From an uncultured delta proteobacterium (GTDB lineage Bacteria; Desulfobacterota; Binatia; Binatales; Binataceae): DNA of 64,000 bases. Below, one piece after another: positions 1 through 26,615 of the stretch. Under the pieces are notes generated by a model. It saw nothing but the letters and a program-made list of their open reading frames with translations. It did not search any database and had not been told where the DNA came from. Within the stretch, counting starts at the first letter, position 1; each line of letters opens with the position of its first letter. The stretch covers positions 544,001 to 608,000 of the forward strand of contig CAVRVY010000001.1 in assembly GCA_963724765.1 (NCBI GenBank), given 5' to 3'. The position numbers and the translations under genes were made by a program.

Positions 1-1446
1 CAAGCCGTGCGCGGAGGCCACGCCCGGGTTGGGCGGCACTATCACCTTGTGCATCCCCAGCCACTCGGCCAGGTAACAGGCGTGCAGCGGACCGGCACCG
101 CCAAAAGCGACCAGCGAGTATTCGCGCGGATCGCGTCCCCGTTTGACCGAGACGGTGCGGATCCCGGCGGCGACGTTTTCCATCGCGACCCGCAGGACCC
201 CTTCGGCGGCGGCGGTCACGCTGAGACCCAACGCCACGCCAATGGGTTCCATGGCGCGGACCGCCTTGTCGCGATCGAGCCTCAAGGCTCCGCCCGCCAG
301 GCCCTGCACAATGCGCCCCAGTATGATGTTAGCGTCGGTGACGGTCGCTTCCGTGCCGCCGCGCCCATAGCAGGCGGGGCCAGGAGTTGACCCTGCGCTT
401 TGCGGCCCCACTCTAAGGCTGCGGCCACCCGCCATCCATACGATCGACCCGCCGCCGGCGCCTACCGTGTGGAGATCGATCATAGGCGTTTTGACGTCAT
501 AGATGCCGACCTTACCCTCGGTCAGCATGCGCGGGGTGCCTTCTTCGACCAGGCAGATGTCGGTCGAGGTGCCGCCCATGTCGAGAGTGATCACATTGGC
601 GGAGCCCGCGAGTTGGGCATAATGGGTGGCGGCGACCACGCCCGCGGCCGGCCCGGAGAGCGCGGCAGCGATCGGGAGGCTCGAGATTTCCTGCGCCTGC
701 GCCAGGCCGCCGCTGGACCGCATGATGCGAAAGGGGGCATTTATCCCGCGCCCCTGCAAGGCGGTCTCGATCCGCTCGTGATAGGTGGACAGCAACGGCA
801 TCAAGGCCGTGTTGAGGCAGGTGGTGTTGGTTCGTTCGTACTCGCGATACTCGCGGAGAATTTCCGAAGAAATCGAAATGCGGCATTCGGGATAGACCTC
901 GGCGATGAGATCGCGGACGTGCTCTTCGTGGCTTGGGTCACGGTAGGCGTGGAGCAGCGAAACCGCGATCGCGTGAACTCCCAACCGTTTGAACTCGCGG
1001 GCGAACTCACGAATTTGATCGGGCTCCACGGGGCGGACCTCGCGTCCGGCGACATCCATCCGCGCGCTGGTCTCGCGCACCAGTTCGAGGGGAACGACGC
1101 GCGGCGGCTTGATCCAGGTCGTGATGTCGCCGAATTCGCCCGGCACGGTCTGGCGCGCGCATTCCAGCACCTCGCGGTAGCCGCCGGTGACGATCAACCC
1201 CAGCACGTCGTACTTGCGCTCGAGGATTGCGTTGGTAGCCACCGTGGTGCCATGGAAGACCCCGCTGATCTCGGCGGGCGAAATTCTTGCGGCGGCGCGA
1301 ATCTCATCCACGCCCTCGATGAATCCCATGGAAGGATCCGCGGGAGTCGTGCGCACCTTGAGCAAATGTATGCGGCCGCTCGCCTCGTCGAGTGCAACCA
1401 GGTCCGTGAAGGTCCCGCCGATATCGATTGCCAGACGCCAAGCCAT
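1..1446 (-). CDS. Hydantoinase/5-oxoprolinase subunit A family protein (paralog 3), runs off the left edge
   Basis: Not in the ORF track; translated by hand: MAWRLAIDIGGTFTDLV...HGTTVATNAILERK...REYERTNTT...SGPAAGV...LDMGGTSTD...GAGGGSI...GPQSAGSTPGPACYG. AGGAGG RBS before the ATG at 1446. Confidence 0.93.
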   Translation of the reverse strand, partial: MAWRLAIDIGGTFTDLVALDEASGRIHLLKVRTTPADPSMGFIEGVDEIRAAARISPAEISGVFHGTTVATNAILERKYDVLGLIVTGGYREVLECARQTVPGEFGDITTWIKPPRVVPLELVRETSARMDVAGREVRPVEPDQIREFAREFKRLGVHAIAVSLLHAYRDPSHEEHVRDLIAEVYPECRISISSEILREYREYERTNTTCLNTALMPLLSTYHERIETALQGRGINAPFRIMRSSGGLAQAQEISSLPIAAALSGPAAGVVAATHYAQLAGSANVITLDMGGTSTDICLVEEGTPRMLTEGKVGIYDVKTPMIDLHTVGAGGGSIVWMAGGRSLRVGPQSAGSTPGPACYGRGGTEATVTDANIILGRIVQGLAGGALRLDRDKAVRAMEPIGVALGLSVTAAAEGVLRVAMENVAAGIRTVSVKRGRDPREYSLVAFGGAGPLHACYLAEWLGMHKVIVPPNPGVASAHGL

Positions 1447-1470
1447 CGCTCCTCCTAACAGTTTGGCCGT

Positions 1471-3558
1471 TTATATACGTGACTTCGGTTCGCGGCTCAG
1501 CGCCAGCATCCCAACCGGGCTCATCGTGACTTGCCATCCGGGCGGGACAACCAGCGTCGCATCCTGCTGCTCGATGACCGCAGGCCCCGGTGTCCGCGAG
1601 CCGCTGCCAAGATCCTCCGCCGCGTAGATCGAACATCGGCAGCTCGCGCCCGTCTCGACAAAAAAAACGTCCCGCCGGGCGCGCGGCCGCGCCTCCGGTC
1701 GCGTGGCGATCTCAGGCAGCCGTGGCCGCGGAATCAGACCCTTGCCCGAGACGCGCAAGGCGACCAGCTCCACCTCGTGATCGGCTGGCCGCGAAAAGCC
1801 GAAACGCGCGGCGAAGCGCTCGCGAAATCGCGCCGCGGCCTCGGCGAGCACAACGCCGGTATCGCAGTGCTGCGCCAGTGAAATAGTGATTTCAGTCGCG
1901 AGTCCAGCGAAACGGAAATCGGCGCTGCGATCGAGCTGGCGGCGCTGGTCCGGAACTCGCTCCCGATCTAGTTCGGCGCTCACCTCACGCTCGAGCTCCG
2001 CAAGCGTCCGCTCGACCAGCGCCCGGTTCGGCTGTCCCATCGGCTCCATCACGCTGCACCCACGAATCGTCTGAAAGTCGGCGGCCAGCAGGCCCAGTGC
2101 AGCCGCCAGACCCGGCTTGGGCGGAAGCAGCACCCGATCCATCCCCAGCAGGGCGGCCAGATGCGCGGCGTGCAATCCCGCCGCTCCGCCCATCGCCATC
2201 AGGGCGAACCCACTTGCTTCGAGGCCGGCCAACGCGAGCGTGCGGCGGATGGCCGAGCAAAGCTGCTGGGAAGCGATCTCGATGATCCCGCAAGCGACGC
2301 GCTGGGGATCGAGTCCGCGATCCTGCGCCAAGCGGGTGAGCGCGGCGCTGGCGGAAGCCCGTGAGAGCTCAAGTGTGCCGCCCGCCAGGACTTCAGGCAG
2401 CCGGCCGAGCATCAGATGGGCGTCGGTGACAGTTGCCTCTACGCCGCCTGTTCCGTAGCAAGCGGGTCCCGGCATAGCGCCCGCGCTGCGGGGTCCTACG
2501 CACAAGCCACCAGTTGAACCCCAGGTGGCAATCGATCCGCCGCCGGCCGCAATCGAGCGAACGTCGACCGCCGCGCTGAAGAGCGGATAGCCTGCTACCG
2601 AGCGAACCACCTTGGCCTCGAATTCGTGGCGTTCGATAAGGCCGATGTCCGCCGAGGTGCCGCCCATGTCCAGCGTCACCAGGTCGCCATAGCCGGCCAG
2701 GCTGCCAAGCCAGGCCGCTCCCACCACGGCCGCGCTCGGACCGGAAAGTGCCGTATCGAGCGGTCGCTCCAGCGCTCCGCGTGCGCTGGCCAAACCGCCG
2801 CTGGCCTGCATCACCATCAGGGGAGCATCGCCCGGCAGCGAGTGGCGGTTCTCGAACGCACCTCGATCCGTAAGACCTGCCGTGAGACTTGTAAGATAGG
2901 CCGCCATCAGGGACTTAAGTGCCGCGTTGGCGCCGGTGGCGGCGGTGCGCGCATACTCGGCCGCGCGCCGGCTGATCTCGCAAGAGAGCAATACCTGCGC
3001 CCCGGCCATCTCCTCGCTGAGGATCTGTTTGACGCGCAGTTCGTGAGCCGGGTTGGCATAGCTGTGCAGAAGGGAGACGGCGATGGTGGCGATACCGCTA
3101 ATGCGAAACCCTCGCGCGGCGCGCCTTATCGTGTCTTCGTCCAGGCCACGGATGACACTGCCGTCGGCGGCAATTCGCTCGTCGACTTCCTGAACTAGTT
3201 CAGGCGGGACAATTGGCTTCCTATTTCGGTCCGGTTCGCCCGGTTGCAAATCAGCCTCGGTGCCGCCGCTGCCGCCAACGCCCAGAATTTCGCGGAAGCC
3301 GCGCGTGACGATCAGTCCAACGGCGGGTAGCTTTCCTTCCAACAGTGCGTTGGTCGCCAGCGTGGTGCTGTGAAGCAGGGTCGTGGCGCGCGCGCCATGC
3401 GGCGTCACCCGGGCTATCGCCGCGGCAATCGCGGCGCGCGGATCGCCGCCGGTATTCGGCACCTTCGCCCATCGCAGCCCGCCTTCTGCATCCAACGCAA
3501 GTGCGTCTATGAAGGTGCCACCCACGTCGACGGCGATCCTGGTCGCGGTCGATCTCAC
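1471..3558 (-). CDS. Hydantoinase/5-oxoprolinase subunit A family protein (paralog 2, divergent)
   Basis: DVGGTFID, HSTTLATNALLE, SGPSAAV, DMGGTSAD and GPRSAGAMPGPACYG motifs. The GTG at 3558 overlaps the upstream TGA (GTGA coupling). Confidence 0.9.
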   Translation of the reverse strand: MRSTATRIAVDVGGTFIDALALDAEGGLRWAKVPNTGGDPRAAIAAAIARVTPHGARATTLLHSTTLATNALLEGKLPAVGLIVTRGFREILGVGGSGGTEADLQPGEPDRNRKPIVPPELVQEVDERIAADGSVIRGLDEDTIRRAARGFRISGIATIAVSLLHSYANPAHELRVKQILSEEMAGAQVLLSCEISRRAAEYARTAATGANAALKSLMAAYLTSLTAGLTDRGAFENRHSLPGDAPLMVMQASGGLASARGALERPLDTALSGPSAAVVGAAWLGSLAGYGDLVTLDMGGTSADIGLIERHEFEAKVVRSVAGYPLFSAAVDVRSIAAGGGSIATWGSTGGLCVGPRSAGAMPGPACYGTGGVEATVTDAHLMLGRLPEVLAGGTLELSRASASAALTRLAQDRGLDPQRVACGIIEIASQQLCSAIRRTLALAGLEASGFALMAMGGAAGLHAAHLAALLGMDRVLLPPKPGLAAALGLLAADFQTIRGCSVMEPMGQPNRALVERTLAELEREVSAELDRERVPDQRRQLDRSADFRFAGLATEITISLAQHCDTGVVLAEAAARFRERFAARFGFSRPADHEVELVALRVSGKGLIPRPRLPEIATRPEARPRARRDVFFVETGASCRCSIYAAEDLGSGSRTPGPAVIEQQDATLVVPPGWQVTMSPVGMLALSREPKSRI

Positions 3559-4682
3559 ACTCCACTCCATCGGCGCGCTATCGTTTCATAGATGTTCGCG
3601 GCCGCTTCAATCATGTCCACCGTGCAATACTCATCGGTCTGATGCGCCAGCGTCATATCGCCCGGTCCAAGGATTACCGTCGGAGCGCCATCGAAGGCAG
3701 GCTTGAGCGCAGCGGCGTCGGTGAAGTAGGGCGCCCCGCGCGGCTCCAGCTTCTCTCCGACAATAGGCTCCATGATTTCGAAGATTTCCCGGATCCAGGG
3801 CTCGCCGGCGTCGGTCCATACGCCGGGCACGTTAACCACCGGTGTCACGGTTACCTGATCTCCCAGGTAGGCCTTGATGCGGCTGAGGAGCGTGTTGTGG
3901 TCCTGGCCGGGGATCGTGCGGATATCGATCGTAAACTCCGCGCGGTCGGGCACCGAGTTCAGATTCATGCCGCCTCTCATCGTACCGACATTGAGCGTCG
4001 GAGCGCCCAGCAGTGGATGAGGAGCCACGTCGAAACTGAATCGTTCGATCGCGCCAATCGCGCGGGCCGCCTTATAGATCGCGTTGACCCCGAGATGGGG
4101 CATCGAGCCGTGAACGGTAACTCCCGTCGCCTCGGCCTGGAGCCAGAGCGCGCCCCTATGGCCGACAATCGGATAGTTGGAAGTCGGCTCGGCGATGACC
4201 AGGGCGCGCGCGTCTCGCACGGCCTGGGTCCGCGCAAGATCGAAGCTGCCCTGGCAGCCCGTCTCCTCGCCGGCCACCGAGACGAACAGCACGTCGGCCT
4301 TGCCCCGTGGCAGCCGAGCCAATTGGAGCGCAGTCCAAACATATGCCGCGACGCCGGCCTTCATGTCGGTCGTACCACGGCCGTAAATCTTCCCGTCTGA
4401 AATCTCACCGGCAAAAGGGTCCTTGCTCCAGGGCTTGGCGCCAAGCGGCACAGTGTCGATATGCCCGCCGAAGCAAATCGGGGCCTTTCCACCGGCACCC
4501 GCAAGCCGTGCAACGATGCTGGTCCGGCCATCGGCAAACTCGTGATAGCTTACCTGCAAACCCGCATCCTGCAGCAGTTTGCCGACATACTGCGCACATT
4601 CGAGCTCCCGCCCTGGCGGATTCATCGTTTCGATTTGGACCAGCTCACGGGTGATTTCGAGCGGTGTCTTGTTCATAGCCAT
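3555..4682 (-). CDS. M20 family metallo-amidohydrolase (ArgE/DapE-like)
   Basis: GHIDTVP, GRGTTDMKAG, GEETG, IAEPT, HGSMPHLGVNAI and AHQTDE motifs; AGGAG RBS. Confidence 0.92.
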   Translation of the reverse strand: MAMNKTPLEITRELVQIETMNPPGRELECAQYVGKLLQDAGLQVSYHEFADGRTSIVARLAGAGGKAPICFGGHIDTVPLGAKPWSKDPFAGEISDGKIYGRGTTDMKAGVAAYVWTALQLARLPRGKADVLFVSVAGEETGCQGSFDLARTQAVRDARALVIAEPTSNYPIVGHRGALWLQAEATGVTVHGSMPHLGVNAIYKAARAIGAIERFSFDVAPHPLLGAPTLNVGTMRGGMNLNSVPDRAEFTIDIRTIPGQDHNTLLSRIKAYLGDQVTVTPVVNVPGVWTDAGEPWIREIFEIMEPIVGEKLEPRGAPYFTDAAALKPAFDGAPTVILGPGDMTLAHQTDEYCTVDMIEAAANIYETIARRWSGV

Positions 4683-4749
4683 ACGTTCGCTCCTCGGACT
4701 GCCCGTGCCCGGCCGATCCTTTGCACGGTCGACAGATCTCCCAGCCCGC

Positions 4750-6795
4750 TCAGGCCTCCGTTATATGTAGAAACCCCAAATCGTCCACGCGAACCTGCTG
4801 GCCCGGATGGACCAAAGTTGTGGAGGACGCCTCCTCGACAATCAACGGACCAAACGCGGTGAAATCTGGGGGCAACAGTTCGCGTTCGAGGACGACCGCC
4901 TCATGGCTGCCCTCCTCGGCGAATTCGACGATGCGCTGGCCCTTGCGGGCCGCTTGTGCCGAGCGCCCCTCAGCGCTTATCCGCCCAAGCTGCGGCCGCG
5001 GCACCCGTTCGACGGCGGTGAGACGGAAGGTAACGAACTCGACCGGCGTTTCGGGCAGGCGAAAGGTGTAGACGCGCTCGTGTGCATCGTGAAAGTCACG
5101 CAGAATATCTTCGACCGTGGAGCGTTCGATATTGACCGGGACAGTTACGGAATGCTCCTGACCGAGATAGCGAAGGTCGATTCTGTATTCGAAGGCAAGC
5201 GCATTATCTGCCGGATGCTGCTCGGTGCGCAGAGACATCCGCGCCTCCTGTCTCAGACTCGCGAACAGCTCCAGAATGTCGTGAATTCCGATTGACTCCG
5301 CGCGACGAAGCGACGTCTGCGTGAAGTCTCGCCGCGGCTCGGTCACCAGCATTCCCCACGCCGAAAACAGACCGGGGTAAAGCGGAACTATAATTGATCT
5401 GACTCCGAGCTCACGCCCCAGCGCCCCCGCATGCATCGCTCCACCACCGCCGCCAACCACCAACACGAAGTCCCTTGGATCGTGGCCACGTTGAATCGAG
5501 ACCAGTTTGAGAGCCTCGATCATGCTCGCATCGACCAGGCGTATAACGGCAACGGCCGCCTCCATCACATTGGTCCTGAGCCTGTCGGCGACCTTGCGCA
5601 TGGCCCGTTTGGCCCGTTCGATATCGAGTTTGAGACGGCCCGCCGCGAAGTAGTCGGGGTTCAAAACGCCTGTAATGAGCTTCGCGTCCGTTACCGTTGG
5701 TTCTTCGCCCCCAAGGGCATAGCAAGCCGGGCCCGGATCGGCGCCGGCACTTAGGGGGCCCACGCGCAGCAAACCCGCAGTATCGAACCAGGCGATCGAA
5801 CCGCCGCCTGCTCCAATCTCAACGATATCGACGACCGGCACCCTGACCGGATAACCAAAGCGGTTGCGATCGTGTTCGAGTTTGTATTCGGTGGTCACTT
5901 TCGGCTGACCGTCTTCTATCGTCGAACACTTGGCCGTCGTTCCCCCGATGTCGAGGTAAATGGCATTGGGCTCGTGACAAAGCCGGCCCACCAGCACTCC
6001 ACCGTTGACGCCCGCCGCGGGCCCGGACTCGATGAGGGTGATGGGGTGCTCCTTGGCCCATTCAAAACTGGCTGTTCCACCGTTGGACTGCATCGCGGAG
6101 AAGGGACATCGAATCCCGATATCGGCCAGCGCCGACTGGAGCCGTCCGAAATACTGTTGCACGATAGGTTGCACGTACGCGTTGAGCACCGCCGTGTTTG
6201 CTCTCTCATACTCGCGCCACTCGCGCGTAATCTCGTGCGACGCCGTGATGGCAACCTCCGGCAGTCTCTCGCGCAGGAAAGCTGCGCAAGCGGCCTCATG
6301 CTCCGGCGCCGTGTAACTGTGCAGGAACTGGATAGCGATGGCTTCGATATTCTCGCTGCGGCATTGCGCGATTATCGGATCGAGGTCCTCGAGATGGAGC
6401 TGCTCGAGTTCCTTGCCCTGGGCGTCGACTCGTTCGCGGACCTCGAAGCGGTACCTGCGGCGCACAAATGGCGCTTCTTTCTCGAAGCGAAGATTGTAGA
6501 GATCGGGGCGATTCCCGCGAGCTATCTCCAGCACGTCGCGAAAACCGGCCGTGGTGATGAGTGCCGTTTTGGCACCCTTGCGCTCGGTGATGACATTGAT
6601 AACGGTGGTGCCGCCGTGAACAAAGAAGCCCACCTCGCCTGGAGGGATTTGTGAGAGCCGGATGGTATCGATCACGCCCTGCGTGAGTTCGCGAGGGGTG
6701 GTCAGCGATTTCGCGGTGCCCAGGTCACCCGTCGCTTCGTTAAAGTAGACGAGGTCAGTGAAGGTGCCACCGATATCAGAGGCCAGCCGCCACAC
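4750..6795 (-). CDS. Hydantoinase/5-oxoprolinase subunit A family protein (paralog 1)
   Basis: DIGGTFTD, HGGTTVIN, REYERANTAVLNAYV, ESGPAAG, DIGGTT and SAGADPGPACY motifs; overlaps the end of the subunit B gene. Confidence 0.95.
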   Translation of the reverse strand: MWRLASDIGGTFTDLVYFNEATGDLGTAKSLTTPRELTQGVIDTIRLSQIPPGEVGFFVHGGTTVINVITERKGAKTALITTAGFRDVLEIARGNRPDLYNLRFEKEAPFVRRRYRFEVRERVDAQGKELEQLHLEDLDPIIAQCRSENIEAIAIQFLHSYTAPEHEAACAAFLRERLPEVAITASHEITREWREYERANTAVLNAYVQPIVQQYFGRLQSALADIGIRCPFSAMQSNGGTASFEWAKEHPITLIESGPAAGVNGGVLVGRLCHEPNAIYLDIGGTTAKCSTIEDGQPKVTTEYKLEHDRNRFGYPVRVPVVDIVEIGAGGGSIAWFDTAGLLRVGPLSAGADPGPACYALGGEEPTVTDAKLITGVLNPDYFAAGRLKLDIERAKRAMRKVADRLRTNVMEAAVAVIRLVDASMIEALKLVSIQRGHDPRDFVLVVGGGGGAMHAGALGRELGVRSIIVPLYPGLFSAWGMLVTEPRRDFTQTSLRRAESIGIHDILELFASLRQEARMSLRTEQHPADNALAFEYRIDLRYLGQEHSVTVPVNIERSTVEDILRDFHDAHERVYTFRLPETPVEFVTFRLTAVERVPRPQLGRISAEGRSAQAARKGQRIVEFAEEGSHEAVVLERELLPPDFTAFGPLIVEEASSTTLVHPGQQVRVDDLGFLHITEA

Positions 6796-8596
6796 GTGCG
6801 CGCTCCATCAGTCCGTCACGCAGTTTGCGCGTCGCTGCCTCGTTCAAGGTCCCGCCGGGTCTTATAACGACGCCGTACTGGGCGCGAGCCTGGCGCGCTG
6901 TGATATAGCCATCGCGCACATCCTCGAACACTTGCGGCGCAGGTCGAGTCAAAGGATCGCCGTATCCGCCACCGCCACCGGTAACCTCCTTGACCCGGTC
7001 GCCCAGTTGCAGAGTGGTAATGGGCTTGCGTGCGCCCCGCCAGCGTTTGCCGTTACTCAGCACTTCGAAATAGTTGCACGACCCCTGCCCGCCGCTATCG
7101 AGTCCCCAAGGCCGCTCGATCGAACGCCCGAAACTTGCCGACAGCAACGTATTGGGAGCCAGCATTTCGTACTCGCGCATCACACCAAAACCGCCACGGT
7201 GTCGGCCCGCACCCACGCCACCCTCGACGTTGAGCCCATAGTGCACCACCCTCAAGGGGAACTTGGCTTCGAGCAGTTCGAGGGAATAATTGAAGGTGTC
7301 CCCGTTCGTGATAGCGCTCACGACGCTCGCGCCGTCTCTCACGTCGGTCGCTCCCCAACCGACCATATTTGGTTCCACCAGCACGAATGTTTCACCAGCT
7401 ACGGGGTCATGACCCGCGAGGACGGTTACGCACAAGCTGTTTGCACTACCCGCACTGAACCGCCCGGGCATCAGACGCGCCAGCGCCTTCCAGGCCAGTT
7501 CGGAGGCTTGCCCCGTGCCCTCGTAGTACCAGCCGACCGGGGCGGGCGGTACGGCCGTGAATACCGTTCCCTCAGGCGCGACCACTTTCATCGGTTTGAA
7601 GTACCCCTCGTTGGAGGGCGCCCGTGGATCGACAAGTGCTTTGAAAACGGTTTTGACCGCTGAGAAAAGGCCACCAGAGGAACAATTCACGGGACCCATA
7701 AGTTGCGGGCAGCATTCGGAGAAATCGAACGTCATCTCGTCGCCCTCAATCCGCACTTGGACCTTGACCGGGAAGCGCTCGTTCCTGATCCCGTCACCAT
7801 CGATCCAGTCAGTCGCTTCGTAAACACCGTCGGGCAAGGCTGCGACCGCGGCGCGGCTCAGCTTCTCACTGGTCTCGATAATATGGCGGAACGCCTCGCG
7901 CACCGTGGCGCTGCCGTATTTCGCGCACAGCTCCTGCATCCTGCGATCCGCGATTCGTACCGACGCCAGTTCCGCGTTGAGATCGCCGAGCGACATCTTT
8001 GGCAGGCGCACGTTCGCCGCGATGGTCTCGAACATATCGTCCTGTCGTTCGCCCTCCTTGTAGAGCCGGACCCCGGTGAAGCGAATACCCTCCTGGTAAA
8101 TCTCGGTGGCGTCCGCCGGCAGTGAACCGGCCATCTTGCCGCCTATGTCCGTCCAATGCGCGATGGAGATCGCGAAACCCAGGAGTTCATCGTTCACGAA
8201 GGTTGGCTTGATTATGGCGACATCATTTAGATGTGTCCCACCCTCGTAAGGGTTGTTGCTCATGTAGATGTCTCCGGGGCGGATCTGACCGGCGTACTTG
8301 CGTCTCACTACATCGACATGCAGAGCGAACGTGCCTGTGAAGACAGTTATGCCGTTGGTTTGAGCGACGAGCTGCCCCTCCGGATCGCAGAAGCCGCAGG
8401 CGAAATCCAGCACCTCATAAATGACCGGGCTCATCGCCGTCCGCGCGAGGACGATACCCATCTCGTCAGCCAGCGCGAGCAGTTTGCCACGGATTATCTC
8501 TAGCGTGACGGTGTCTACTAGCCGTTGCCGAGCACGATATTGCTTTGCTGCTTCAGGGGCGGTTTCGAGCATGGTTGAAGTATCTTCGATATCCAT
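6776..8596 (-). CDS. Hydantoinase B / oxoprolinase family protein
   Basis: SPVIYEVLDF, NNPYEGGTHLND, HWTDIGG, EIYQEG, GAGRHRGG and GGGGGYGDP motifs. Confidence 0.95.
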   Translation of the reverse strand: MDIEDTSTMLETAPEAAKQYRARQRLVDTVTLEIIRGKLLALADEMGIVLARTAMSPVIYEVLDFACGFCDPEGQLVAQTNGITVFTGTFALHVDVVRRKYAGQIRPGDIYMSNNPYEGGTHLNDVAIIKPTFVNDELLGFAISIAHWTDIGGKMAGSLPADATEIYQEGIRFTGVRLYKEGERQDDMFETIAANVRLPKMSLGDLNAELASVRIADRRMQELCAKYGSATVREAFRHIIETSEKLSRAAVAALPDGVYEATDWIDGDGIRNERFPVKVQVRIEGDEMTFDFSECCPQLMGPVNCSSGGLFSAVKTVFKALVDPRAPSNEGYFKPMKVVAPEGTVFTAVPPAPVGWYYEGTGQASELAWKALARLMPGRFSAGSANSLCVTVLAGHDPVAGETFVLVEPNMVGWGATDVRDGASVVSAITNGDTFNYSLELLEAKFPLRVVHYGLNVEGGVGAGRHRGGFGVMREYEMLAPNTLLSASFGRSIERPWGLDSGGQGSCNYFEVLSNGKRWRGARKPITTLQLGDRVKEVTGGGGGYGDPLTRPAPQVFEDVRDGYITARQARAQYGVVIRPGGTLNEAATRKLRDGLMERARVAAGL

Positions 8597-11378: not shown

Positions 11379-11388
11379 CTTAGTACCG

Positions 11389-12580: not shown

Positions 12581-12584
12581 GTCG

Positions 12585-18486: not shown

Positions 18487-18507
18487 GATGAGCGGGAGGT
18501 CAGTTTC

Positions 18508-19410
18508 GTGTGCGGAATTATAGGACTGTTGGCCAAGAAGAAAGAGTTGCGCCAGTCGCTCGGCGAGTTGGTCCTTCCGATGTTCGACTGCATGGCCGAG
18601 CGCGGACCGGACTCGGCCGGGCTGGCGGTCTTCGCAGCCGCCGTGAAACCGCCGCTGCGCCGCTTCAGTCTGTTCAGTGATCGCGAGGGCTATGACTGGA
18701 ATGGCTTAGCGCGATCGGTACAAAAAGATTTTGGATGTCACGCCGAGATCATCACGCGTGACAATCATGCTGAGGTTGTCGCAGCAATAGAAGGTGATCC
18801 CTTCAGGCGCTGGCTCAAGCAACGGGGCGACGATGTGCGCGTGCTGGCGGTGGGGCATTCGATCGAGCTGTTCAAGGATGTAGGCCGTCCGGACGAGGTC
18901 GCCAGGCGTTACGGATTCTCCGCTTTGCGTGGCACGCATTGCGTGGGCCATACGAGGATGGCGACCGAGTCGCAGGTATCGCCGGCGCACGCTCATCCGT
19001 TCACCGCGGGCGAGGACTTTTGCCTGGTGCATAACGGCTCGTTGTCGAATCCCTATAGCCTGCGCCGCCTGCTGGAGGAGGAGAACCTGGAATTCGAAAC
19101 AGACAACGATAGCGAATCGGCCTGCCGTTTTTTGCAGTGGCGCATGCGCAAGGGCGATACGATTGAGCAGGCACTTGGTGCGGCGCTTGACAAGATCGAC
19201 GGCTTTTACACTTTTCTGATCGGAACGGCCGAACAGCTGGTGCTGATACGGGATCCATTCGCCTGCAAGCCCGCAGTGGTCGCGGAGACCGACCGATACG
19301 TCGCGATATCCTCGGAGTTCCGATCGCTGGCCCACTTGCCTGGAATCGCGGAAGCCAACATCTTCGAGCCGCTGCCCGAACAGATCTATGCATGGAGGGT
19401 CGCGGCATGA
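18508..19410 (+). CDS. mgsA: N-methylglutamate synthase subunit A (class II glutamine amidotransferase, GlxB)
   Basis: N-terminal MCGIIG, RGPDSAG, GHTRMATES and HNGSLSN motifs. Confidence 0.88.
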   Translation: MCGIIGLLAKKKELRQSLGELVLPMFDCMAERGPDSAGLAVFAAAVKPPLRRFSLFSDREGYDWNGLARSVQKDFGCHAEIITRDNHAEVVAAIEGDPFRRWLKQRGDDVRVLAVGHSIELFKDVGRPDEVARRYGFSALRGTHCVGHTRMATESQVSPAHAHPFTAGEDFCLVHNGSLSNPYSLRRLLEEENLEFETDNDSESACRFLQWRMRKGDTIEQALGAALDKIDGFYTFLIGTAEQLVLIRDPFACKPAVVAETDRYVAISSEFRSLAHLPGIAEANIFEPLPEQIYAWRVAA

Positions 19411-20096
19411 AGCCCCTCCGGCTCGATCTGTCCACGATGAGTGTCCGCGAACTGAATGACTACCTGCATCATCAGCTGGTCGCCGACGGCGTGCGCGCAG
19501 TCGAGATTCTCAATCCCAACGGCATGCACAACCTCGCGGTCGGACTTGACTATCCAGTCGAGGTGCACATACGGGGCAACGCCGGCTACTTCATCGGGGG
19601 CATGAACAAGCAGGCTCATATAACGGTATACGGCAACGTGGGCTGGAGCGTGGCCGAGAACATCATGTCGGGCAGCGTGCGGGTTAAAGGCAACGCCTCT
19701 GAGTGCACGGCCGCCTCGGGCCATGGCGGCCTGGTGGTGATCGAGGGCGACAGCTCCTCGCGATGCGGAATATCGATGAAGGGTTGCGACATCGTCGTCG
19801 GTGGCTCGGTGGGCCACATGTCGGGTTTCATGGCGCAGGCGGGCAATCTGCTGGTATGCGGCGACGCCGGCGCGCACCTGGGTGATTCGCTTTACGAAGC
19901 GGTGATTTACGTGCGCGGCAAAATTCATAGTCTTGGCGCGGATGCACGCGAGGAACCGATGACGGAGGCCGACTACGCCAAGATTGGACAGTTACTCAAG
20001 CGAGCCGGATTCGAACTCCCGTCCAAGGAGTTCAAACGGGTAGCTTCGGCGCGCACACTGTATCACTGGAACGCCGAAGCCCATCAGGAATATTGA
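19407..20096 (+). CDS. mgsB: N-methylglutamate synthase subunit B (GXGXG domain, GlxC)
   Basis: AENIMSG, RCGISMKG and GDSLYEA motifs; ATGA overlap with mgsA. Confidence 0.88.
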   Translation: MKPLRLDLSTMSVRELNDYLHHQLVADGVRAVEILNPNGMHNLAVGLDYPVEVHIRGNAGYFIGGMNKQAHITVYGNVGWSVAENIMSGSVRVKGNASECTAASGHGGLVVIEGDSSSRCGISMKGCDIVVGGSVGHMSGFMAQAGNLLVCGDAGAHLGDSLYEAVIYVRGKIHSLGADAREEPMTEADYAKIGQLLKRAGFELPSKEFKRVASARTLYHWNAEAHQEY

Positions 20097-20103
20097 GCGA
20101 CCA

Positions 20104-21459
20104 ATGCCATTGAAGCATCTTGAAGAAAGCGCGACGCTCAACGCCGAAGCGCTCGAATACATCCACCGCGCCGCGGAGCGGGGACTTTATGAGATCAGGG
20201 GCCTGGGCGCCAAGCGCAAGCTCGCGACCTTTGAGGACCTGGTGTTCCTGACCGCGTCGCTGTCGCGTTATCCGCTCGAGGGCTATCGCGAAAAGTGCCT
20301 GACCAGGACAGTTCTTGGAACGCGCTTCGCCAAGAAGCCCATCGAGCTCGCAATCCCCATAACTATCGCCGGAATGAGCTTCGGCGCGTTGTCGGCTCGC
20401 GCCAAGGAGGCAATCGGCCGCGCCGCTACCGCGGTCGGCACCTCTACCACCACCGGCGACGGCGGCATGACGTCCGAAGAGCGTAACGCGTCAAAGACCC
20501 TGGTCTACCAATGTTTGCCTTCGCGCTATGGGTTTAACCCTGACGATCTGCGAAGAGCCGACGCCATCGAGGTCGTGGTCGGGCAGGGCGCCAAGCCGGG
20601 CGGCGGCGGCGTTTTGCTGGGGCAAAAGATCAGCCCGAGGGTCGCCGCGATGCGGACCTTGCCGGAAGGTATCGACCAGCGCTCCGCGTGCCGGCATCCC
20701 GACTGGACGGGCTGCGACGACCTGACCATCAAGATCGCCGAACTGCGGGAGATTACCGACTGGCAAGTGCCCATCTACGTCAAAATGGGCGCCTCTCGCG
20801 TCTTCAACGACGTCAAGCTCGCCATCAAGAGCGGCGCCGACGTGATCGTGGTCGATGGCATGCAGGCCGGGACGGCGGCGACTCAGCAGGTGTTCATCGA
20901 GCATGCGGGAATACCGACTCTGCCCGCGCTGCGCGAAGCGGTCGAGGCCTTGGAAGAAATGAAGATGGTGGGCAGGGTTCAGCTCATCGTCTCGGGTGGT
21001 ATCCGTAGCGGCGCCGACGTCGCTAAGGCCCTCGCGATGGGCGCGGATGCGGTTTCGATCGGACAAGCGGTGTTGGTGGCGCTTGGCTGCAATTCGCCGC
21101 GCTGCGCGGACGGCGCCGCGCATCAGGACGTTAGCGCTGACTACGAGCGTCTCGGTACCGCTGCGGGCTACTGCCACCACTGCCATACCGGAATGTGCCC
21201 CGTGGGCATCACGACCCAATTGCCGGAACTCGAGACGAGGCTCGACCCGCAGGAGGGGGCAAAGCGGCTGCGCAATTACCTCAACGTGATGAACATGGAA
21301 CTGGTCACGCTGGCGCGCGCGTGCGGCAAGTCCGACGTCCATCATCTGGAGCGCGAGGACCTGGCCGCACTCACTATCGAGGCGGCGGCGATGGCGAAGA
21401 TTAAGTTGGCGGGAACGAACTGGATACCAGGACTGAAGGGTGAGTCGGGCCTCGAGTGA
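20104..21459 (+). CDS. mgsC: N-methylglutamate synthase subunit C (FMN-binding glutamate synthase family, GlxD)
   Basis: SRYPLEGYREKC, GMSFGALS, GQGAKPGGGG, RHPDWTG and the Fe-S motif CHHCHTGMCPVG. Confidence 0.9.
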   Translation: MPLKHLEESATLNAEALEYIHRAAERGLYEIRGLGAKRKLATFEDLVFLTASLSRYPLEGYREKCLTRTVLGTRFAKKPIELAIPITIAGMSFGALSARAKEAIGRAATAVGTSTTTGDGGMTSEERNASKTLVYQCLPSRYGFNPDDLRRADAIEVVVGQGAKPGGGGVLLGQKISPRVAAMRTLPEGIDQRSACRHPDWTGCDDLTIKIAELREITDWQVPIYVKMGASRVFNDVKLAIKSGADVIVVDGMQAGTAATQQVFIEHAGIPTLPALREAVEALEEMKMVGRVQLIVSGGIRSGADVAKALAMGADAVSIGQAVLVALGCNSPRCADGAAHQDVSADYERLGTAAGYCHHCHTGMCPVGITTQLPELETRLDPQEGAKRLRNYLNVMNMELVTLARACGKSDVHHLEREDLAALTIEAAAMAKIKLAGTNWIPGLKGESGLE

Positions 21460-22808
21460 GCGGTAGGCGGACCGGGCAGGGCAAAATGAGTCTTGGGCGA
21501 AATTCGGGAGGCGCCTTATTGAGCAATGGCGGCAATGGCGCCAGGCGCCGACTGCGATTGCCCGAGCGCTATTCCGCGTGGAGCCTGCTCCGTCACGGAC
21601 TGACGGGCGAAGATTGGCCGCGGGCGTGGCGAACGCACGATCTCAAGTCGTCCTACGACGTCGTTATCATCGGTGCCGGCGTACATGGATTGGCGACCGC
21701 TTACTACTTGGCCAGAAACCACGGCCTAACCGATGTCGCAGTGCTTGATCGGGGCTACCTGGGTGGCGGTAATTCGGGCCGCAACACCGCGATCGTCCGC
21801 TCCAACTATTTAACCCCCGAGGGGGTGCGCTTCTACAACCGTTCGGTGAAGCTGTACGAGCAATTGGCCTCCGAACTGAACTTCAACGTGATGTTCTCGC
21901 AGCCCGGCCATCTCACGCTGGCTCACACCGACAGTTCACTGCGCACGATGCGTTGGCGGGCTGAGGTCAACAAGCTTGAGGGCGTCCGGTCCGAAGTCAT
22001 CGACCCGCAGGAAATCAAGCGGTTAGTACCAGTCCTGGACGTTTCACAGGACGTGCGATACCCAATCCTCGGCGCGCTCTACCACGCCCCAGGCGGGATC
22101 ATCCGCCACGATGCAGTCAACTGGGGTTATGCACGCGGCGCCGACGCCTGCGGCATCCACATCCATCAGAAGACCGAGGTGACAGCGATCGATGTCGAGA
22201 ATGACCGCGTCGTCTCAGTGAGAACCACGCGGGGCAAGATCGCGACCAGGCACCTGCTCAACTGTACCGCAGGATATTCCAGCGTCGTATCGGCGATGGC
22301 CGGGGTAACGCTTCCAATCGTGACTCTTCCGCTGCAAGCGGCGGTGACCGAACCGATTAGGCATTTCCTCGGAGCCGTAATAGTCTCAGGCACCCTGCAT
22401 GTCTACGTAAGTCAGACCGATCGCGGCGAGATGGTCTTCGGTGCCAGCGTCGATCCGTTCGGATCCTATTCGATGCGTGGTTCGCTGGAATTCACCGAGG
22501 AGTTGGCGGGCCAGGTGCTCGAACTGATTCCGTCCATCGCCAAGGTCCGGCTGGTACGCCAATGGGCGGGGTTGTGCGACATGACTCCGGATTTCTCGCC
22601 GGTCATGGGTGTCACACCGGTCCAGGGATTTTATGTCGACGTCGGATGGGGCACCTACGGCTTCAAAGCCGGTCCGGTATCCGGTGAGACGATGGCGCAA
22701 CTGGTCGCAAGCGGAAAGACGCCCGAGCTGATCGCACCGTTCAGTCTTGCGCGCTTCCTGGAGGGTCGCCTGGTGGGCGAAAAAGGCGCCGCTTCGGTAG
22801 GCCATTGA
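21456..22808 (+). CDS. mgdA: N-methylglutamate dehydrogenase / sarcosine oxidase beta-like subunit
   Basis: FAD-binding IIGAGVHG, GGNSGRNT, RHDAVNWGYA and GWGTYGFKA motifs; follows mgsABC. Confidence 0.82.
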   Translation: MSGRRTGQGKMSLGRNSGGALLSNGGNGARRRLRLPERYSAWSLLRHGLTGEDWPRAWRTHDLKSSYDVVIIGAGVHGLATAYYLARNHGLTDVAVLDRGYLGGGNSGRNTAIVRSNYLTPEGVRFYNRSVKLYEQLASELNFNVMFSQPGHLTLAHTDSSLRTMRWRAEVNKLEGVRSEVIDPQEIKRLVPVLDVSQDVRYPILGALYHAPGGIIRHDAVNWGYARGADACGIHIHQKTEVTAIDVENDRVVSVRTTRGKIATRHLLNCTAGYSSVVSAMAGVTLPIVTLPLQAAVTEPIRHFLGAVIVSGTLHVYVSQTDRGEMVFGASVDPFGSYSMRGSLEFTEELAGQVLELIPSIAKVRLVRQWAGLCDMTPDFSPVMGVTPVQGFYVDVGWGTYGFKAGPVSGETMAQLVASGKTPELIAPFSLARFLEGRLVGEKGAASVGH

Positions 22809-22838
22809 ACATGGTGCGTCTTCGGAAAGGAGTGCCGG

Positions 22839-23171
22839 ATGATATTGGTGCCATGTCCATATTGCGGGCCGCGTAACGTTTCGGAATTTCGCTGGGGCGG
22901 GGAAATCAAGCCCCGCCCCGACCCCAATGGCGCCAGCACAGAGCAGTGGCGCGACTACCTATACCTCAAACGCAACCAGGCCGGATGGATCACGGAGACC
23001 TGGTGCCATCAGGCTGGATGCGGCCGATACTTTCGCAGTGAGCGCCATACAATTACCAACGAAATTCGTGCCACTTATGTTGGAAGCGAACGGCAGCCGG
23101 TCTCTGCGAGCGTCGAAGCGGAACCTCCGGCGCAACCTGATACCGCTGGAATCCCGGTTGTGCGCCGATGA
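22839..23171 (+). CDS. mgdB: N-methylglutamate dehydrogenase / sarcosine oxidase delta-like subunit
   Basis: Zn-binding CPYCGPR...EF...W.H..GC motif. Confidence 0.82.
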   Translation: MILVPCPYCGPRNVSEFRWGGEIKPRPDPNGASTEQWRDYLYLKRNQAGWITETWCHQAGCGRYFRSERHTITNEIRATYVGSERQPVSASVEAEPPAQPDTAGIPVVRR

Positions 23172-25963
23172 CCGTGTCAATGACTAATCGGCTCGCGCCG
23201 CAACCTGGAGAGGTTGTCAATCGGGGCGAGCACTTCAGCTTCACCTGGAACGGTGTGACCTTTCCCGCCTTCGCGGGAGACACTATCGTCTCCGCGCTCG
23301 CTGCCTGCGGCGTGCGGATCTTTTCGCGCAGCTACAAATACCATCGCCCGCATGGAATCCTGACCGCTGACTATCTCGACCCTTCCTGCACGATGCAGGT
23401 TGGCGATGAACCGAATGTGCGTGCCGCGCATCGATTGGTGAAGAGCGGGTTGCAGGTCAAGGCTCAAAACGCATGGCCGTCACTGAGTTTTGATCTCAAA
23501 TCCGCAAACCGGCTGATGGCCAGGTTCATGGGACCCGGGTTCTACTACAAGACCTTCATGTGGCCTCGACGCTGGTGGCCCTTTTATGAGCGCATCCTCA
23601 GACGTTTCATCACGGGCGGAGAAATCAATCCGCATGCCGAACACGGTTACTACGATAAGCGTTATGCGCACCCGGATGTTTTGGTCGCGGGCGGCGGACC
23701 CGCTGGTATGGCGGCCGCCGTGGCGGCGGCAAAGACCGGCGCGCAGGTGATGTTGGTTGAGGAAGGGCATCAACTCGGAGGCCATCTCCGATGGGGCGAC
23801 GAGCGCCAGTTGAAGTTGCTGGATCAGCTTCGCAACGAAGTGCTCGCTCAGCCAGAAATCGAGGTGCTGACCGATTCCGTGGTTACAGGCCGCTACGACG
23901 GCAACTGGGTAGCGGTCGTCCAGCGCAGTCTGCCCGGGGTCGTCGAAAGGCTAATCAAGGCGCGCGTCAAGGGGTTGATCGTTGCGCCCGGCCTAATCGA
24001 GCGTCCTTACGTGTTTGAGGGAAACGATCTGCCGGGCGTGATGCTGTCGGGAGCGGTGCGGCGTCTGATCAACCTCTACGCTGTCAGGCCCGGCTCGCGG
24101 GCGGTGGTCTTCACCGCTAATGACCAGGGCGATCAGGCCGTGGTCGACCTTCGGCGCGTCAACGTGGAGGTTGCGGCGGTCGTCGATGCGCGGCGCGGAG
24201 ATGGCATCGTACGGGCTTATGGCCGCAACGGAGTGCGCAGCGTAGAGCTGGCCAATGGCGTGCGGGTGAATTGCGATCTGCTGGTGGTTGCCGCGGGCTG
24301 GACCGCGCCCGGCCTCCTGCTGAACATGGCCGGCGACAAGCCCAGATATGAGGCCGCTGCCGCGCGCTTCCTTCCGGGCGGTAACCTTCCCGACGACGTT
24401 TTTGCGGCGGGAGGTTTGGCCGGCGATGGTTCGATCGGGGAGCTGATCGGTCACGCTCAGGCGGTTGGCCAAGCGGCGGCCGCCCGCGCAGGATACGGTT
24501 CGCGGCCAGTGATCCCGCAACTCGCAGTGCACAATCATCCGCCACTGTTCCGCAGTCGTACCCACGGAACAGTCGATTGGTGTGAGGACGTGTCTTCAGC
24601 GGATATATGCTCCGCGGTCAAGGAAGGCTACGACTCCATCGAGTTGGTCAAGCGGTATACCACTTCAACGATGGGCCCTACGCAAGGAAAATTGGAGACC
24701 ATCAACACGATGGCGATCGTGGCCGAGATGCTAGGGCATAGCATCGAGGAAACCGGGACGACCGTTTGGCGGCCTCCCTACGCGCCAATCACGCTTGGAG
24801 GATTGGCCGGGCGGCGCATGGAGCCGATGTACGTTTCGCCAATGCAGCCGTGGCACGAGGCTCATAAGGCAGCGCCGCTCGTCGCAGGGCGGTGGATTCG
24901 CCCGGAGCATTACGGGGATCCACAGTCGGAAGTCACCAACACGCGCACCAACGTCGGAATCATCGATGTGACGCCTTTGGGCAAGTACCTATTGCACGGC
25001 CCGGACACCATCAAACTGCTCAACCTTTTATACGTCAACGACTGGTCGGCGCTCGCGGTAGGTTCCGCCCAGTACGGCCTGATGTGTGGCGAAGACGGTG
25101 TGGTGCTCGACGACGGCGTCACCGCTCGCATTGCTGCCGATGAGTACTTCATGACGACCACCTCGTCGGGCGCTGCCGCCGTGGGCCAATGGATCGAGTC
25201 CTGGCTCCAAGGCTCCAGCGACAATTGGCTCGTGCACGTCGTTCCCGCCACGGACGCTTTCGCATCGATGAACGTCGCGGGCCCCAAGTCGGTCGAACTG
25301 CTTCGGCGGTTGACCGAGGAAGTCGATTTGCATACCGCAGCCTTTCCATACATGGGAGCGCGCAAGGGCCGCGTTGCCGGCGTGGATGGTTGCTATCTGC
25401 TGCGCCTGGGCTTCACCGGGGAGCTGAGCTACGAGTTACATGTGCCGGCCAGCTATGGACTGTACGTATGGGAAAGGTTGATCGATTGCGGGCACGATCT
25501 CGGAATTCAAGCTTTTGGCATCGAAGCGCAGCGTATCATGCGGCTGGAAAAAGGGCACGTCATTATCGGACAGGATACCGATGGACTGACGCAGGCGCTG
25601 AGCCTTGGCCTTAAGAAGTTCGTAAAGTTCGCAAAGACCGATTTCGTCGGCAAACCCGAACTCAAGTGGCAGACCGAGCGGAATGACTATCCGCGGCTGG
25701 TTGGCTTATGGCCCTCCGATCCCAACGTGGTGCCGCCTGAGGCGAGCCTTATAGTCAACGGCGACAGGATCCTGGGGCGAGTCACTTCGAGTCGTATGTC
25801 GCCTACGCTGCGGCGTTCGATCTGCATGGCGCTCCTTGACGAAGCTTCGTCGAAGGCCGGCACTCGCCTGACTATCCGATTGCCCGACGGCGAGCGTATC
25901 TCCGCGCAGGTCGCCGAGCGACGAATCCACTTCGATCCGCAAGGGACAAGACTGCGTGGCTGA
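23168..25963 (+). CDS. mgdC: N-methylglutamate dehydrogenase / sarcosine oxidase alpha-like subunit (GcvT-like C-terminus)
   Basis: GDTIVSALAA, SRSYKYHRP, GGGPAG, KRYTT..MGPTQGK, DVTPLGK, GFTGELSYE and RLEKG motifs. Confidence 0.85.
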   Translation: MTVSMTNRLAPQPGEVVNRGEHFSFTWNGVTFPAFAGDTIVSALAACGVRIFSRSYKYHRPHGILTADYLDPSCTMQVGDEPNVRAAHRLVKSGLQVKAQNAWPSLSFDLKSANRLMARFMGPGFYYKTFMWPRRWWPFYERILRRFITGGEINPHAEHGYYDKRYAHPDVLVAGGGPAGMAAAVAAAKTGAQVMLVEEGHQLGGHLRWGDERQLKLLDQLRNEVLAQPEIEVLTDSVVTGRYDGNWVAVVQRSLPGVVERLIKARVKGLIVAPGLIERPYVFEGNDLPGVMLSGAVRRLINLYAVRPGSRAVVFTANDQGDQAVVDLRRVNVEVAAVVDARRGDGIVRAYGRNGVRSVELANGVRVNCDLLVVAAGWTAPGLLLNMAGDKPRYEAAAARFLPGGNLPDDVFAAGGLAGDGSIGELIGHAQAVGQAAAARAGYGSRPVIPQLAVHNHPPLFRSRTHGTVDWCEDVSSADICSAVKEGYDSIELVKRYTTSTMGPTQGKLETINTMAIVAEMLGHSIEETGTTVWRPPYAPITLGGLAGRRMEPMYVSPMQPWHEAHKAAPLVAGRWIRPEHYGDPQSEVTNTRTNVGIIDVTPLGKYLLHGPDTIKLLNLLYVNDWSALAVGSAQYGLMCGEDGVVLDDGVTARIAADEYFMTTTSSGAAAVGQWIESWLQGSSDNWLVHVVPATDAFASMNVAGPKSVELLRRLTEEVDLHTAAFPYMGARKGRVAGVDGCYLLRLGFTGELSYELHVPASYGLYVWERLIDCGHDLGIQAFGIEAQRIMRLEKGHVIIGQDTDGLTQALSLGLKKFVKFAKTDFVGKPELKWQTERNDYPRLVGLWPSDPNVVPPEASLIVNGDRILGRVTSSRMSPTLRRSICMALLDEASSKAGTRLTIRLPDGERISAQVAERRIHFDPQGTRLRG

Positions 25964-26615
25964 AACGATCCCTATAGCGCGTAGCCCGATAGCGCCGGCG
26001 CCTCCTGTCACTGTGGTCGCCGGATGGAAGATATCGGCGAAGCATTCCTCGGCGCCCCTGCGGCTGATCGATTGCACGCCATGCCAGAAGATCCTGATAC
26101 GCGCAAGTGCAGAGAGCACGGCCGCCCACACTCTGGGTATTGGCCGGGGCCGCGCCGGGCGCGACGATTCCGGACGTCTGGTAGCCGGAATAGCTCCCGA
26201 AGAGTGGCTGATGATCGGTCCACCGGGCACGTCTATACCGTCGCATCTGACAACGAGCATCGACGGCGGCCCCGAGCTAATAACTATCGTGGACGTCACA
26301 CACGCGCGCGCCTTGATACGTATAGTCGGGACGAACAGCGCAAAAGTCATGTCCAAACTGTGTGGCGTCGACTTTGGCGACAAGGCGACTCCCAATAACA
26401 CCGCATTGCGCACTTCGGCGGCCGGGCTAGTAGTTGAAATAGTGCGTAGCGACCTCGCTAATCACGCCCGCGGTGCGTTGGCCTCTGATATGACGGCCCG
26501 CAGCTATTTAATCCTTTGCGAACGTTCGGCCGGGCAGTATCTGTTCAACATCCTTCTGGACGCAGGCGAAGAGTTTGAAGTGGATATAGAAGGCTTCGGG
26601 GTAAGCGGGCTGTGA
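25956..26615 (+). CDS. mgdD: N-methylglutamate dehydrogenase / sarcosine oxidase gamma-like subunit
   Basis: APEEWL, VDVTHAR and RSAGQYL...LLDAG motifs; last gene of the beta-delta-alpha-gamma order. Confidence 0.78.
   Translation: MAETIPIARSPIAPAPPVTVVAGWKISAKHSSAPLRLIDCTPCQKILIRASAESTAAHTLGIGRGRAGRDDSGRLVAGIAPEEWLMIGPPGTSIPSHLTTSIDGGPELITIVDVTHARALIRIVGTNSAKVMSKLCGVDFGDKATPNNTALRTSAAGLVVEIVRSDLANHARGALASDMTARSYLILCERSAGQYLFNILLDAGEEFEVDIEGFGVSGL

Follow-up and report, generated by a model that had tools for sequence, protein, structure and literature searches.

A gene cluster that fills positions 1 to 26,615 of a 64,000-nucleotide stretch from an uncultured delta proteobacterium of the Binataceae (assembly GCA_963724765.1, contig CAVRVY010000001.1, positions 544,001 to 608,000; hereafter the window) consists of an N-methylglutamate (NMG) operon for methylamine use and at least three separable modules of C-N hydrolases, and is not one linear pathway. 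The methylamine back end is known; what appears to be new is the combination of hydrolases, a conserved two-gene module of a nitrilase and a CE4-family hydrolase, and an unusual, putative two-alpha enzyme. Because relatives keep these hydrolases beside NMG genes in other arrangements, they probably free methylamine from N-methyl compounds. Our preferred proposal, to which we give about an even chance, is that the ring of an N-methyl imide, ureide or lactam would be opened and the half-amide then cleaved to give methylamine, both substrate and activities being predicted from sequence. It builds on the gene families, intact motifs, operon spacing and repeated physical linkage described below, from which we infer the N-methyl substrates and the methylamine product. 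The first-pass annotation of this DNA had not recognized the gene combination as a characterized pathway, and no description of it appeared in the literature searched, most subscription papers lying outside that search.

The source genome (G000; G numbers designate genomes, L numbers loci, C numbers contigs of G000 and g28 a genus) has 5.4 Mb and is 97% complete. All 20 genes between positions 1 and 26,615 have open frames and the expected families by Pfam and TIGRFAM/NCBI family models, so that the hydrolase families and the gmaS-mgsABC-mgdABCD series announced at first pass are indeed there. That inventory named the families correctly and missed genes, namely the third of the HyuA genes, a DUF1329 protein and, outside the window, HyuB1 and a 148-amino-acid (aa) open reading frame (ORF). 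On the minus strand, the left arm runs nitrilase, CE4a, DUF1329, hyuB3, hyuA3, M20, hyuA2, hyuA1 and goes on beyond the window with hyuB1 and then the 148-aa ORF (C1:540750-541193; L001:16747-17193); the full hyuA1 gene reaches C1:543380 and is stop-free over 688 aa. The right arm, on the plus strand, runs XRE, C45, CE4b, fmdA, gmaS, mgsABC, mgdABCD, with insertion sequence (IS) remnants at its end. Intergenic gaps are -20 to +181 nt inside each arm, 571 nt between the nitrilase and XRE genes and 376 nt after XRE, and C45-CE4b-fmdA-gmaS share one strand with a spacing of 63 to 78 nt. A promoter and terminator scan of the locus gave a chance-level result. Catalytic motifs were seen in the nitrilase, CE4a, CE4b, M20, C45, the three HyuA and the two HyuB; those of M20 and C45, with Cys109 as the C45 nucleophile, are what we take to be the family motifs. 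For the CE4 and HyuAB proteins, reference residues came from the accessible parts of PMC3084791 (HP0310) and PMC8453981 (CapAB).

In the NMG pathway, GmaS forms gamma-glutamylmethylamide, MgsABC turns it into N-methylglutamate, and MgdABCD yields glutamate and methylene-tetrahydrofolate. By its sequence, the NMG core of the window is an ordinary XRE-regulated operon of this type. The gmaS-mgsABC adjacency and the set of GATase II, GXGXG and FMN glutamate-synthase domains are both present, and MgsABC share 43 to 75% identity with plasmid-borne glxBCD-type genes that adjoin glnT. Scores of the last four genes stay below the sarcosine oxidase cut-offs (soxB 519 versus 529, soxA 811 versus 1164); the sequence is compatible with either N-methylglutamate or sarcosine as the preferred substrate of the tetramer, and it is the gene context that favors Mgd. 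No other such tetramer was found in the genome. Four amine-dehydrogenase heavy-chain homologues (C1:132343, C1:478857, C2:289979 and C2:432864) all score below the methylamine dehydrogenase cut-off. The NMG route has been reported in three Binatota genomes (PMC8262859, in its accessible part). As to the regulator, in all five proteobacterial plasmid clusters opened, from 33 records found, an XRE gene 49 to 62% identical to that of the window lies in a gmaS cluster that has none of the window hydrolases. The window XRE therefore belongs to the NMG operon, and a hydrolase-specific regulator was rejected. Three of these plasmid clusters (L213, L214 and L215) have XRE-gmaS-mgsABC but lack mgdABCD in their 12-kb flanks, and adjoin hutG (N-formylglutamate deformylase), LysR, FAD oxidoreductase and HutD genes, with electron transfer flavoprotein genes in two; they may oxidize N-methylglutamate by an alternative route via N-formylglutamate.

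The modular nature of the locus is best seen within its own genus, sampled with 17 genomes of which 10 carry gmaS (G000 and nine congeners). Only G014, among the nine, keeps the whole cluster, with its hyuA2 split over two frames. G004 and G005 retain CE4a-nitrilase-XRE, G005 together with remnants of C45, DUF1329, hyuA1 and the 148-aa ORF; G002, G003 and G016 have a 68% identical CE4 no more than 4 kb from gmaS, and in G013 the locus is at a contig edge. In G000 itself, C3 carries a second nitrilase-CE4a copy, 93% identical, which comes with a truncated XRE and the 148-aa ORF and adjoins folD-purU, two genes that also follow mgdD in G014. The congener subsets, the C3 copy and a GC step indicate that the hydrolase set was assembled from parts and often trimmed. 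The modules assort independently, and the single coupled pathway of the first-pass annotation is not supported. The nitrilase occurs in 7 of the 17 genomes, all among the 10 gmaS-positive ones (Fisher p 0.0098, for kin that are not independent).

The prediction that hydrolases and NMG genes would co-occur elsewhere was borne out: orthologues of the nitrilase, CE4b, FmdA, HyuA1B1, HyuA3B3 and M20 lie, in other gene orders, beside gmaS-mgs genes of a different clade, 32 to 59% identical to those of the window. NMG genes appear in 4 of 80 metagenome nitrilase loci. This different NMG clade is found at two of these four (L081 and L082) and at one genome locus (L066), in all of which the nitrilase is divergent from mgsA. 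L082 has the order nitrilase-DUF1329-CE4b-fmdA-hyuA1-hyuB1, with FmdA 80% identical to that of the window. The DUF1329 gene, one of many paralogues in G000, accompanies the nitrilase in L066, L079, L080 and L082 and may have a role in uptake. In G454, from another family, hyuA3-hyuB3-M20-CE4-mgsABC-mgd-gmaS fall within ca. 22 kb; HyuA3 is 69 to 70% identical to the versions of G454 and G565, and the M20 orthologue travels with HyuA3B3 in both. Across the class sample (301 genomes, 42 with gmaS), close HyuB3 orthologues were found in 2 of the 300 other genomes, both gmaS-positive, and M20 orthologues in 16, of which 7 are in gmaS-positive genomes and 3 of these within ca. 17 kb of gmaS.

A CE4 gene lies near gmaS in 6 of 11 gmaS-bearing genera (from 24 tabulated gmaS loci, a subset of the gmaS-positive genomes, with three genera on short contigs), versus 4.1% of random positions of G000 within 15 kb of a CE4 of this type; the equivalent values for HyuA and M20 are 2.7% and 2.5%. 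The nominal binomial p of 2e-6 overstates the case, as relatives are not independent in their history and a single genome supplied the background. In a quick tree (the only kind used for CE4), the CE4s near gmaS fall in at least four clades, which suggests repeated recruitment. Other genes recur at these loci. Upstream of gmaS, G052 (L051:72-7847) has a CE4, split urea-carboxylase/PxpBC-like genes, M20 and an amidase, with what are presumably parts of a di-iron monooxygenase. A DIOX-type 2-oxoglutarate oxygenase and a cytosine-deaminase-like amidohydrolase recur in varying subsets (L201:13931-17299; G004, G005, G567 and G605), as do, at the same class loci, an amidase, a class I glutamine amidotransferase-like gene and an M55 peptidase.

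Conservation of the nitrilase-CE4a pair extends across phyla. A CE4 adjoins the nitrilase in 60 of the 80 metagenome loci (32 of the 36 in which both flanks reach 900 nt or more), and the pair is also present on replicons of Paenarthrobacter, Agrobacterium, Paracoccus (where it is frameshifted) and Salmonella. In the last (L067:10283-21914), it sits between hexuronate genes and a set of FAD oxidoreductase, aldehyde dehydrogenase (ALDH), cupin and permease, a layout that, by our mapping, seems to fit Salmonella pathogenicity island 13 as described in the accessible part of PMC4852409. At E 1e-30, the nitrilase family counts 702 members, of which many are from Bacillota; homologues from cultured Bacillota are 55 to 64% identical. 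The phylum search found just distant nitrilases (ca. 40% identity), in 5 of 400 other genomes, and a contig scan with a single nitrilase query gave 6 close loci. No description of the pair was found in the literature searched, with the same restriction on subscription papers.

The E-K-C triad of the nitrilase is invariant across 56 homologues. Its fold was found, at no more than 24% identity to any structure among those listed, with Nit2/Nit3-type amidases among the top matches and no subfamily singled out. For CE4a, the best PDB match and nearest solved relative is HP0310 (182 bits, versus up to 41 bits for polysaccharide deacetylases), whose Asp-Asp-His-His-His site is present. According to the accessible part of PMC3084791, HP0310 has a closed site for a small substrate of unresolved identity. 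Membership of PuuE allantoinases was rejected for CE4 (TIGR03212 scores of 34 to 43 versus 424.6), and by its relatives CE4a is a candidate cyclic imide or hydantoin opener. One of these is on the Paenarthrobacter plasmid pYJND-2, where the CE4 directly after a 47% identical nitrilase orthologue is the sole annotated polysaccharide deacetylase among 55 features, and 45% identical to CE4a. Sections 3.2 and 3.4 of PMC12927932, a source available in part, place ddaH1 on plasmid 2 of strain YJN-D and describe DdaH1 as opening an N-aryl hydantoin, after which the M20 enzyme DuaH frees the amine; the pYJND-2 CE4 is very probably ddaH1. The pair is often accompanied by an importer, and its neighbors include copper amine oxidase and ALDH (pYJND-2 and L119), FAD oxidases and ALDH (L141 among others) and ethanolamine lyase genes (L096 and L140).

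In the right arm, CE4b belongs to a clade tied to NMG and dimethylformamidase (DMFase)-like genes with a support of 100. Its orthologues (52% identity) were found in 19 of the 300 other class genomes, all gmaS-positive and at 10.3 to 14.9 kb from gmaS; all 19 are in the genus g28 and count as one lineage, not 19 events. An 81% identical CE4b paralogue in G000 (C1:272153-275771) is directly upstream of a gene that we take to encode a DMFase-large-subunit-like protein, one of three such in the genome. Genes to which we would give the same label lie near gmaS in five loci of the g28 family. FmdA scored 70.2 versus a cut-off of 500 (NF045496); formamidase membership was rejected, and the protein belongs to the wider PF03069 family.

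The HyuAB proteins belong to the ATP-dependent lactamase/hydantoinase superfamily, for which lactam opening at the expense of ATP is established, with DxGGT ATP motifs in HyuA and an Asp-His-Asp-His site in HyuB, on residues taken from the accessible part of PMC8453981; HyuA3 has Lys at the position of CapA Asp302. Membership of caprolactamases was rejected, with A subunits at 395 to 507 and B at 216 to 285 versus a cut-off of 1000 for the Cap equivalog (HyuA1 being scored on its in-window part). The best PDB match for HyuB3 (311 bits), HyuB1 (226) and HyuA2 (358) is 7HK5, in all cases distant. HyuA2 lacks a dedicated B gene. In a HyuA tree that had no characterized enzyme among its sequences, it clusters with the extra A gene of g28 hyuA'-A1-B1 operons (Shimodaira-Hasegawa-like approximate likelihood ratio 98, with a long-branch warning). 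This extra gene is upstream of hyuA1-hyuB1 in 5 of the 6 g28 loci fetched (L186-L191), where the two A genes are separated by a metallophosphoesterase gene and, in some, preceded by a luciferase-like monooxygenase gene. HyuA2 is a probable partner of HyuA1 and HyuB1. HyuB1 orthologues (78 to 80%) are present in 24 of the 26 genomes of g28 and nowhere else in the class sample.

Put together, the locus would be a methylamine-harvesting hub around a standard NMG operon, whose collected C-N hydrolase modules would release methylamine from imported N-methyl compounds. In the first module, CE4a would act without ATP to open an N-methyl cyclic imide or an N3-methyl hydantoin-type ring, and methylamine would be released when the nitrilase then cuts the N-methyl half-amide or ureido acid. 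The second, C45-CE4b-FmdA, co-oriented with gmaS, may act on N-methyl amides and strip them of short acyl or formyl groups. In the third, two HyuAB enzymes, one of them with an additional alpha subunit, would use ATP to open stabler N-methyl lactams or ureides, M20 completing the breakdown. Such a tool kit for several substrates would have been acquired and trimmed by module.

Several observations weigh against this proposal. HyuB1 is far from gmaS in all 24 g28 carriers, and 9 of the 16 M20 orthologues are in gmaS-negative genomes. FmdA was found in none of five congeners tested, a search made without a positive control, and G001 and G009 have no hydrolases within 20 kb of gmaS while keeping the nitrilase elsewhere. 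Window hydrolases are absent from the five proteobacterial plasmid NMG clusters examined. GC content drops from 65-67% in hyuA1 and hyuA2 to 53-57% from DUF1329 to XRE. As for the pair, NMG genes are not beside it in 20 of 21 distant loci of at least 10 kb (several of them redundant), the probable DdaH1 falls on a long branch outside the 42-row CE4a clade in the quick tree, and no amine-oxidizing neighbor was present among the genes scanned at L089-L091, L109/L118, L112, L122, L126, L143 and L146. Where amine oxidases do adjoin the pair, this is a raw observation.

Since most distant loci have no NMG genes, the pair is not methylamine-specific, and its common denominator seems to be ring opening and then release of a primary amine that varies. 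In a broader reading, which we consider less likely than not, the nitrilase and HP0310-type CE4 would form a widespread and so far undescribed pathway that, in two steps, detaches primary amines from cyclic imides or ureides of natural origin with substituents on nitrogen, and that feeds varied amine-consuming back ends, joined in this class by a new two-alpha/one-beta ATP-dependent hydrolase. The back end would be NMG in this class, while Actinomycetota would use copper amine oxidase, Proteobacteria FAD amine oxidases, and others ethanolamine lyase. If true, DdaH and the HP0310 family would gain a natural role, and these bacteria would consume an unrecognized pool of N-methylated organic nitrogen.

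We consider it unlikely that unrelated catabolic modules simply accreted, uncoupled, beside the NMG operon, in a mobile part of a genome that is rich in hydrolases. G000 does have nine CE4 sites and HyuA genes at five further loci, the locus has IS remnants at its right edge and GC steps, its left arm has been trimmed repeatedly (the G005 remnants and the deletion-type C3 copy), and the nitrilase-CE4a pair occurs elsewhere without NMG. However, orthologues recur beside a different NMG clade and in other orders and families, CE4 genes are near gmaS far above the random value for G000, and C45-CE4b-fmdA-gmaS are tightly spaced on one strand.

Repair of NMG side products is improbable as an explanation for the hydrolases. 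HyuAB would here reopen N-methyl-5-oxoproline that arises from N-methylglutamate, the nitrilase would act on N-methyl-2-oxoglutaramate (whose hydrolysis is EC 3.5.1.36), and CE4b, M20 or FmdA would deformylate N-formylglutamate or N-methylformamide. The genes upstream of gmaS in G052, the annotated N-formylglutamate deformylase in three of the five plasmid clusters and the Nit2/Nit3-type fold matches of the nitrilase would fit, but many NMG clusters do without these genes, and the nitrilase-CE4 pair occurs with importers at NMG-free loci, which points to an external substrate.

Quite improbable, and restricted to one module so that it is compatible with the other readings, is that HyuA2-HyuA1-HyuB1 form an acetophenone carboxylase (Apc)-like two-alpha complex that carboxylates a ketone or enolizable substrate instead of hydrolyzing an amide. 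The layout of two A genes and one B in the g28 loci recalls Apc, which has two ATP-binding subunits (PMC8453981, accessible part). Against it, all three proteins fit the lactamase models better than those of Apc (110 to 241 versus cut-offs of 1250 to 1500), with every score far below cut-off, and A1-B1 occur without the upstream A' beside amidases in L082 and on a Rhodococcus plasmid. The 148-aa ORF (618 homologues, with a copy at C3:342959-343402) is disfavored as the small Zn subunit of such a carboxylase: Pfam and family-model searches gave no match, and its predicted structure is a barrel of the AOC/dirigent type (Z 12.7 to PloI4 and 11.7 to pyocyanin demethylase; root mean square deviation 2.6 to 2.8 over 108 to 119 aligned residues), a shared fold that shows no function.

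Very unlikely, finally, is a route from creatinine or N-methylhydantoin (one of the substrates first suggested) to sarcosine by HyuAB via N-carbamoylsarcosine and then the nitrilase or M20, with Mgd as sarcosine oxidase and no release of methylamine: 7HK5, a PDB entry named N-methylhydantoinase, is the best match of three Hyu proteins, MgdA matches sarcosine oxidase beta (389 bits) and cytosine-deaminase-like genes lie near gmaS in G005, G567 and G605, but neither the creatininase (PF02633) nor the cytosine/creatinine deaminase (NF005748) that would feed it was found in this 97%-complete genome, and it has no need of gmaS-mgs or of two CE4s.

Coordinates are collected in Table 1. To the right of the cluster, the multi-copy IS481/IS3-type element at 26807-28281 has an inverted partial copy. 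Farther on are a rubrerythrin-VIT1 fusion gene (30373-31437) and a 258-aa ORF (32516-33292) in which Pfam finds an NAD:arginine ADP-ribosyltransferase domain (E 3e-10).

Table 1. Features of the locus, in window coordinates
Feature	Position	Strand	Family and evidence
HyuB1	left of window, after HyuA1	-	PF02538, 674 aa
HyuA1	1..1446 (in-window 5' part)	-	PF01968/PF05378; ATP-binding subunit, hydantoinase/oxoprolinase family
HyuA2	1471..3570	-	Pfam; ATP motifs kept; alpha-type, fast-evolving, own B gene absent
M20, ArgE/DapE-family metallo-amidohydrolase	3555..4682	-	TIGR01910, 243 bits > 217.6
HyuA3, ATP-binding subunit	4750..6795	-	Pfam
HyuB3	6776..8596	-	PF02538; motifs present
DUF1329/LolA-like protein, 542 aa	8778..10406	-	Pfam
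CE4a, HP0310-type Zn hydrolase	10449..11303	-	site D23, D25, H96, H100, H243
Nitrilase-superfamily amidase	11389..12315	-	PF00795; probable ATG 12315, frame open to 12351
XRE-cupin regulator	12923..13546	+	Pfam
C45 autoproteolytic acyltransferase/hydrolase	13923..15029	+	NF040521, 270.8 > 85
CE4b, second HP0310-type Zn hydrolase	15108..15998	+	clade tied to NMG and DMFase-like genes
Acetamidase/formamidase-family protein (FmdA)	16062..17036	+	PF03069
GmaS, gamma-glutamylmethylamide synthetase	17110..18486	+	TIGR03105, 654.6 > 469.6
MgsABC, N-methylglutamate synthase	18508..21459	+	GATase II, GXGXG, Glu_synthase domains
MgdABCD, heterotetrameric sarcosine-oxidase-type N-methylglutamate dehydrogenase	21456..26615	+	soxB/D/A/G models, all below cut-off
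IS481/IS3-type element remnants	26807..28281	.	right boundary of locus

Bacteria with the NMG pathway tend to be regarded as users of free methylated amines. If the modules do free methylamine from N-methyl rings and amides, an abundant uncultured lineage would reach a pool of nitrogen and one-carbon units that gene inventories have missed. The nitrilase-CE4 pair is a small, testable two-gene target, available in several phyla that include cultured Bacillota and Actinomycetota.

Compared with the NMG pathway as described in PMC8262859 and, for Mycobacterium, in PMC5023230, the eight genes and the XRE are alike in the window, whereas the hydrolase modules go unmentioned in the accessible parts of both papers. 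The Paenarthrobacter route for the fungicide iprodione (PMC12927932) shares two families with the window, a CE4 that opens an N-substituted hydantoin and an M20 that frees the amine, and its probable DdaH1 follows a nitrilase orthologue as CE4a does; it differs in its xenobiotic N-aryl substrate and its amine oxidase back end instead of NMG, and the accessible part of the paper makes no mention of the nitrilase beside ddaH1. The nmpABCDEF genes of Alicycliphilus BQ1 and Paracoccus ZQW-1 (PMC12866759 and PMC6987047, both available in part) act on N-methylpyrrolidone, for which N-methylsuccinimide is reported as a product, by ATP-dependent HyuAB lactam opening, a family common to the window. An nmp-like layout on an Agrobacterium plasmid (L058:9511-24855) has HyuAB, FAD oxidase, cupin, PucR and succinate-semialdehyde dehydrogenase together with the nitrilase-CE4a pair. 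Its HyuA/B are 31 to 36% identical to those of the window over full-length alignments, and G000 has a 54% identical HyuA relative on C4. The amino acid oxidase, cupin, PucR and succinate-semialdehyde dehydrogenase partners are absent from the window locus. With CapAB and Apc (PMC8453981, in part), the window enzymes share ATP motifs and the metal tetrad, and their two-alpha layout resembles that of Apc, whereas their scores, 216 to 507 and 110 to 241, fall far short of either set of models. Lastly, caffeine C-8 oxidation in Pseudomonas CBB1 is proposed, in the accessible part of PMC4408171 and by steps that are unproven, to include hydrolysis of methylated ureides to methylureas, a chemistry close to that suggested here, although its upstream purine oxidation genes are absent from the window locus.

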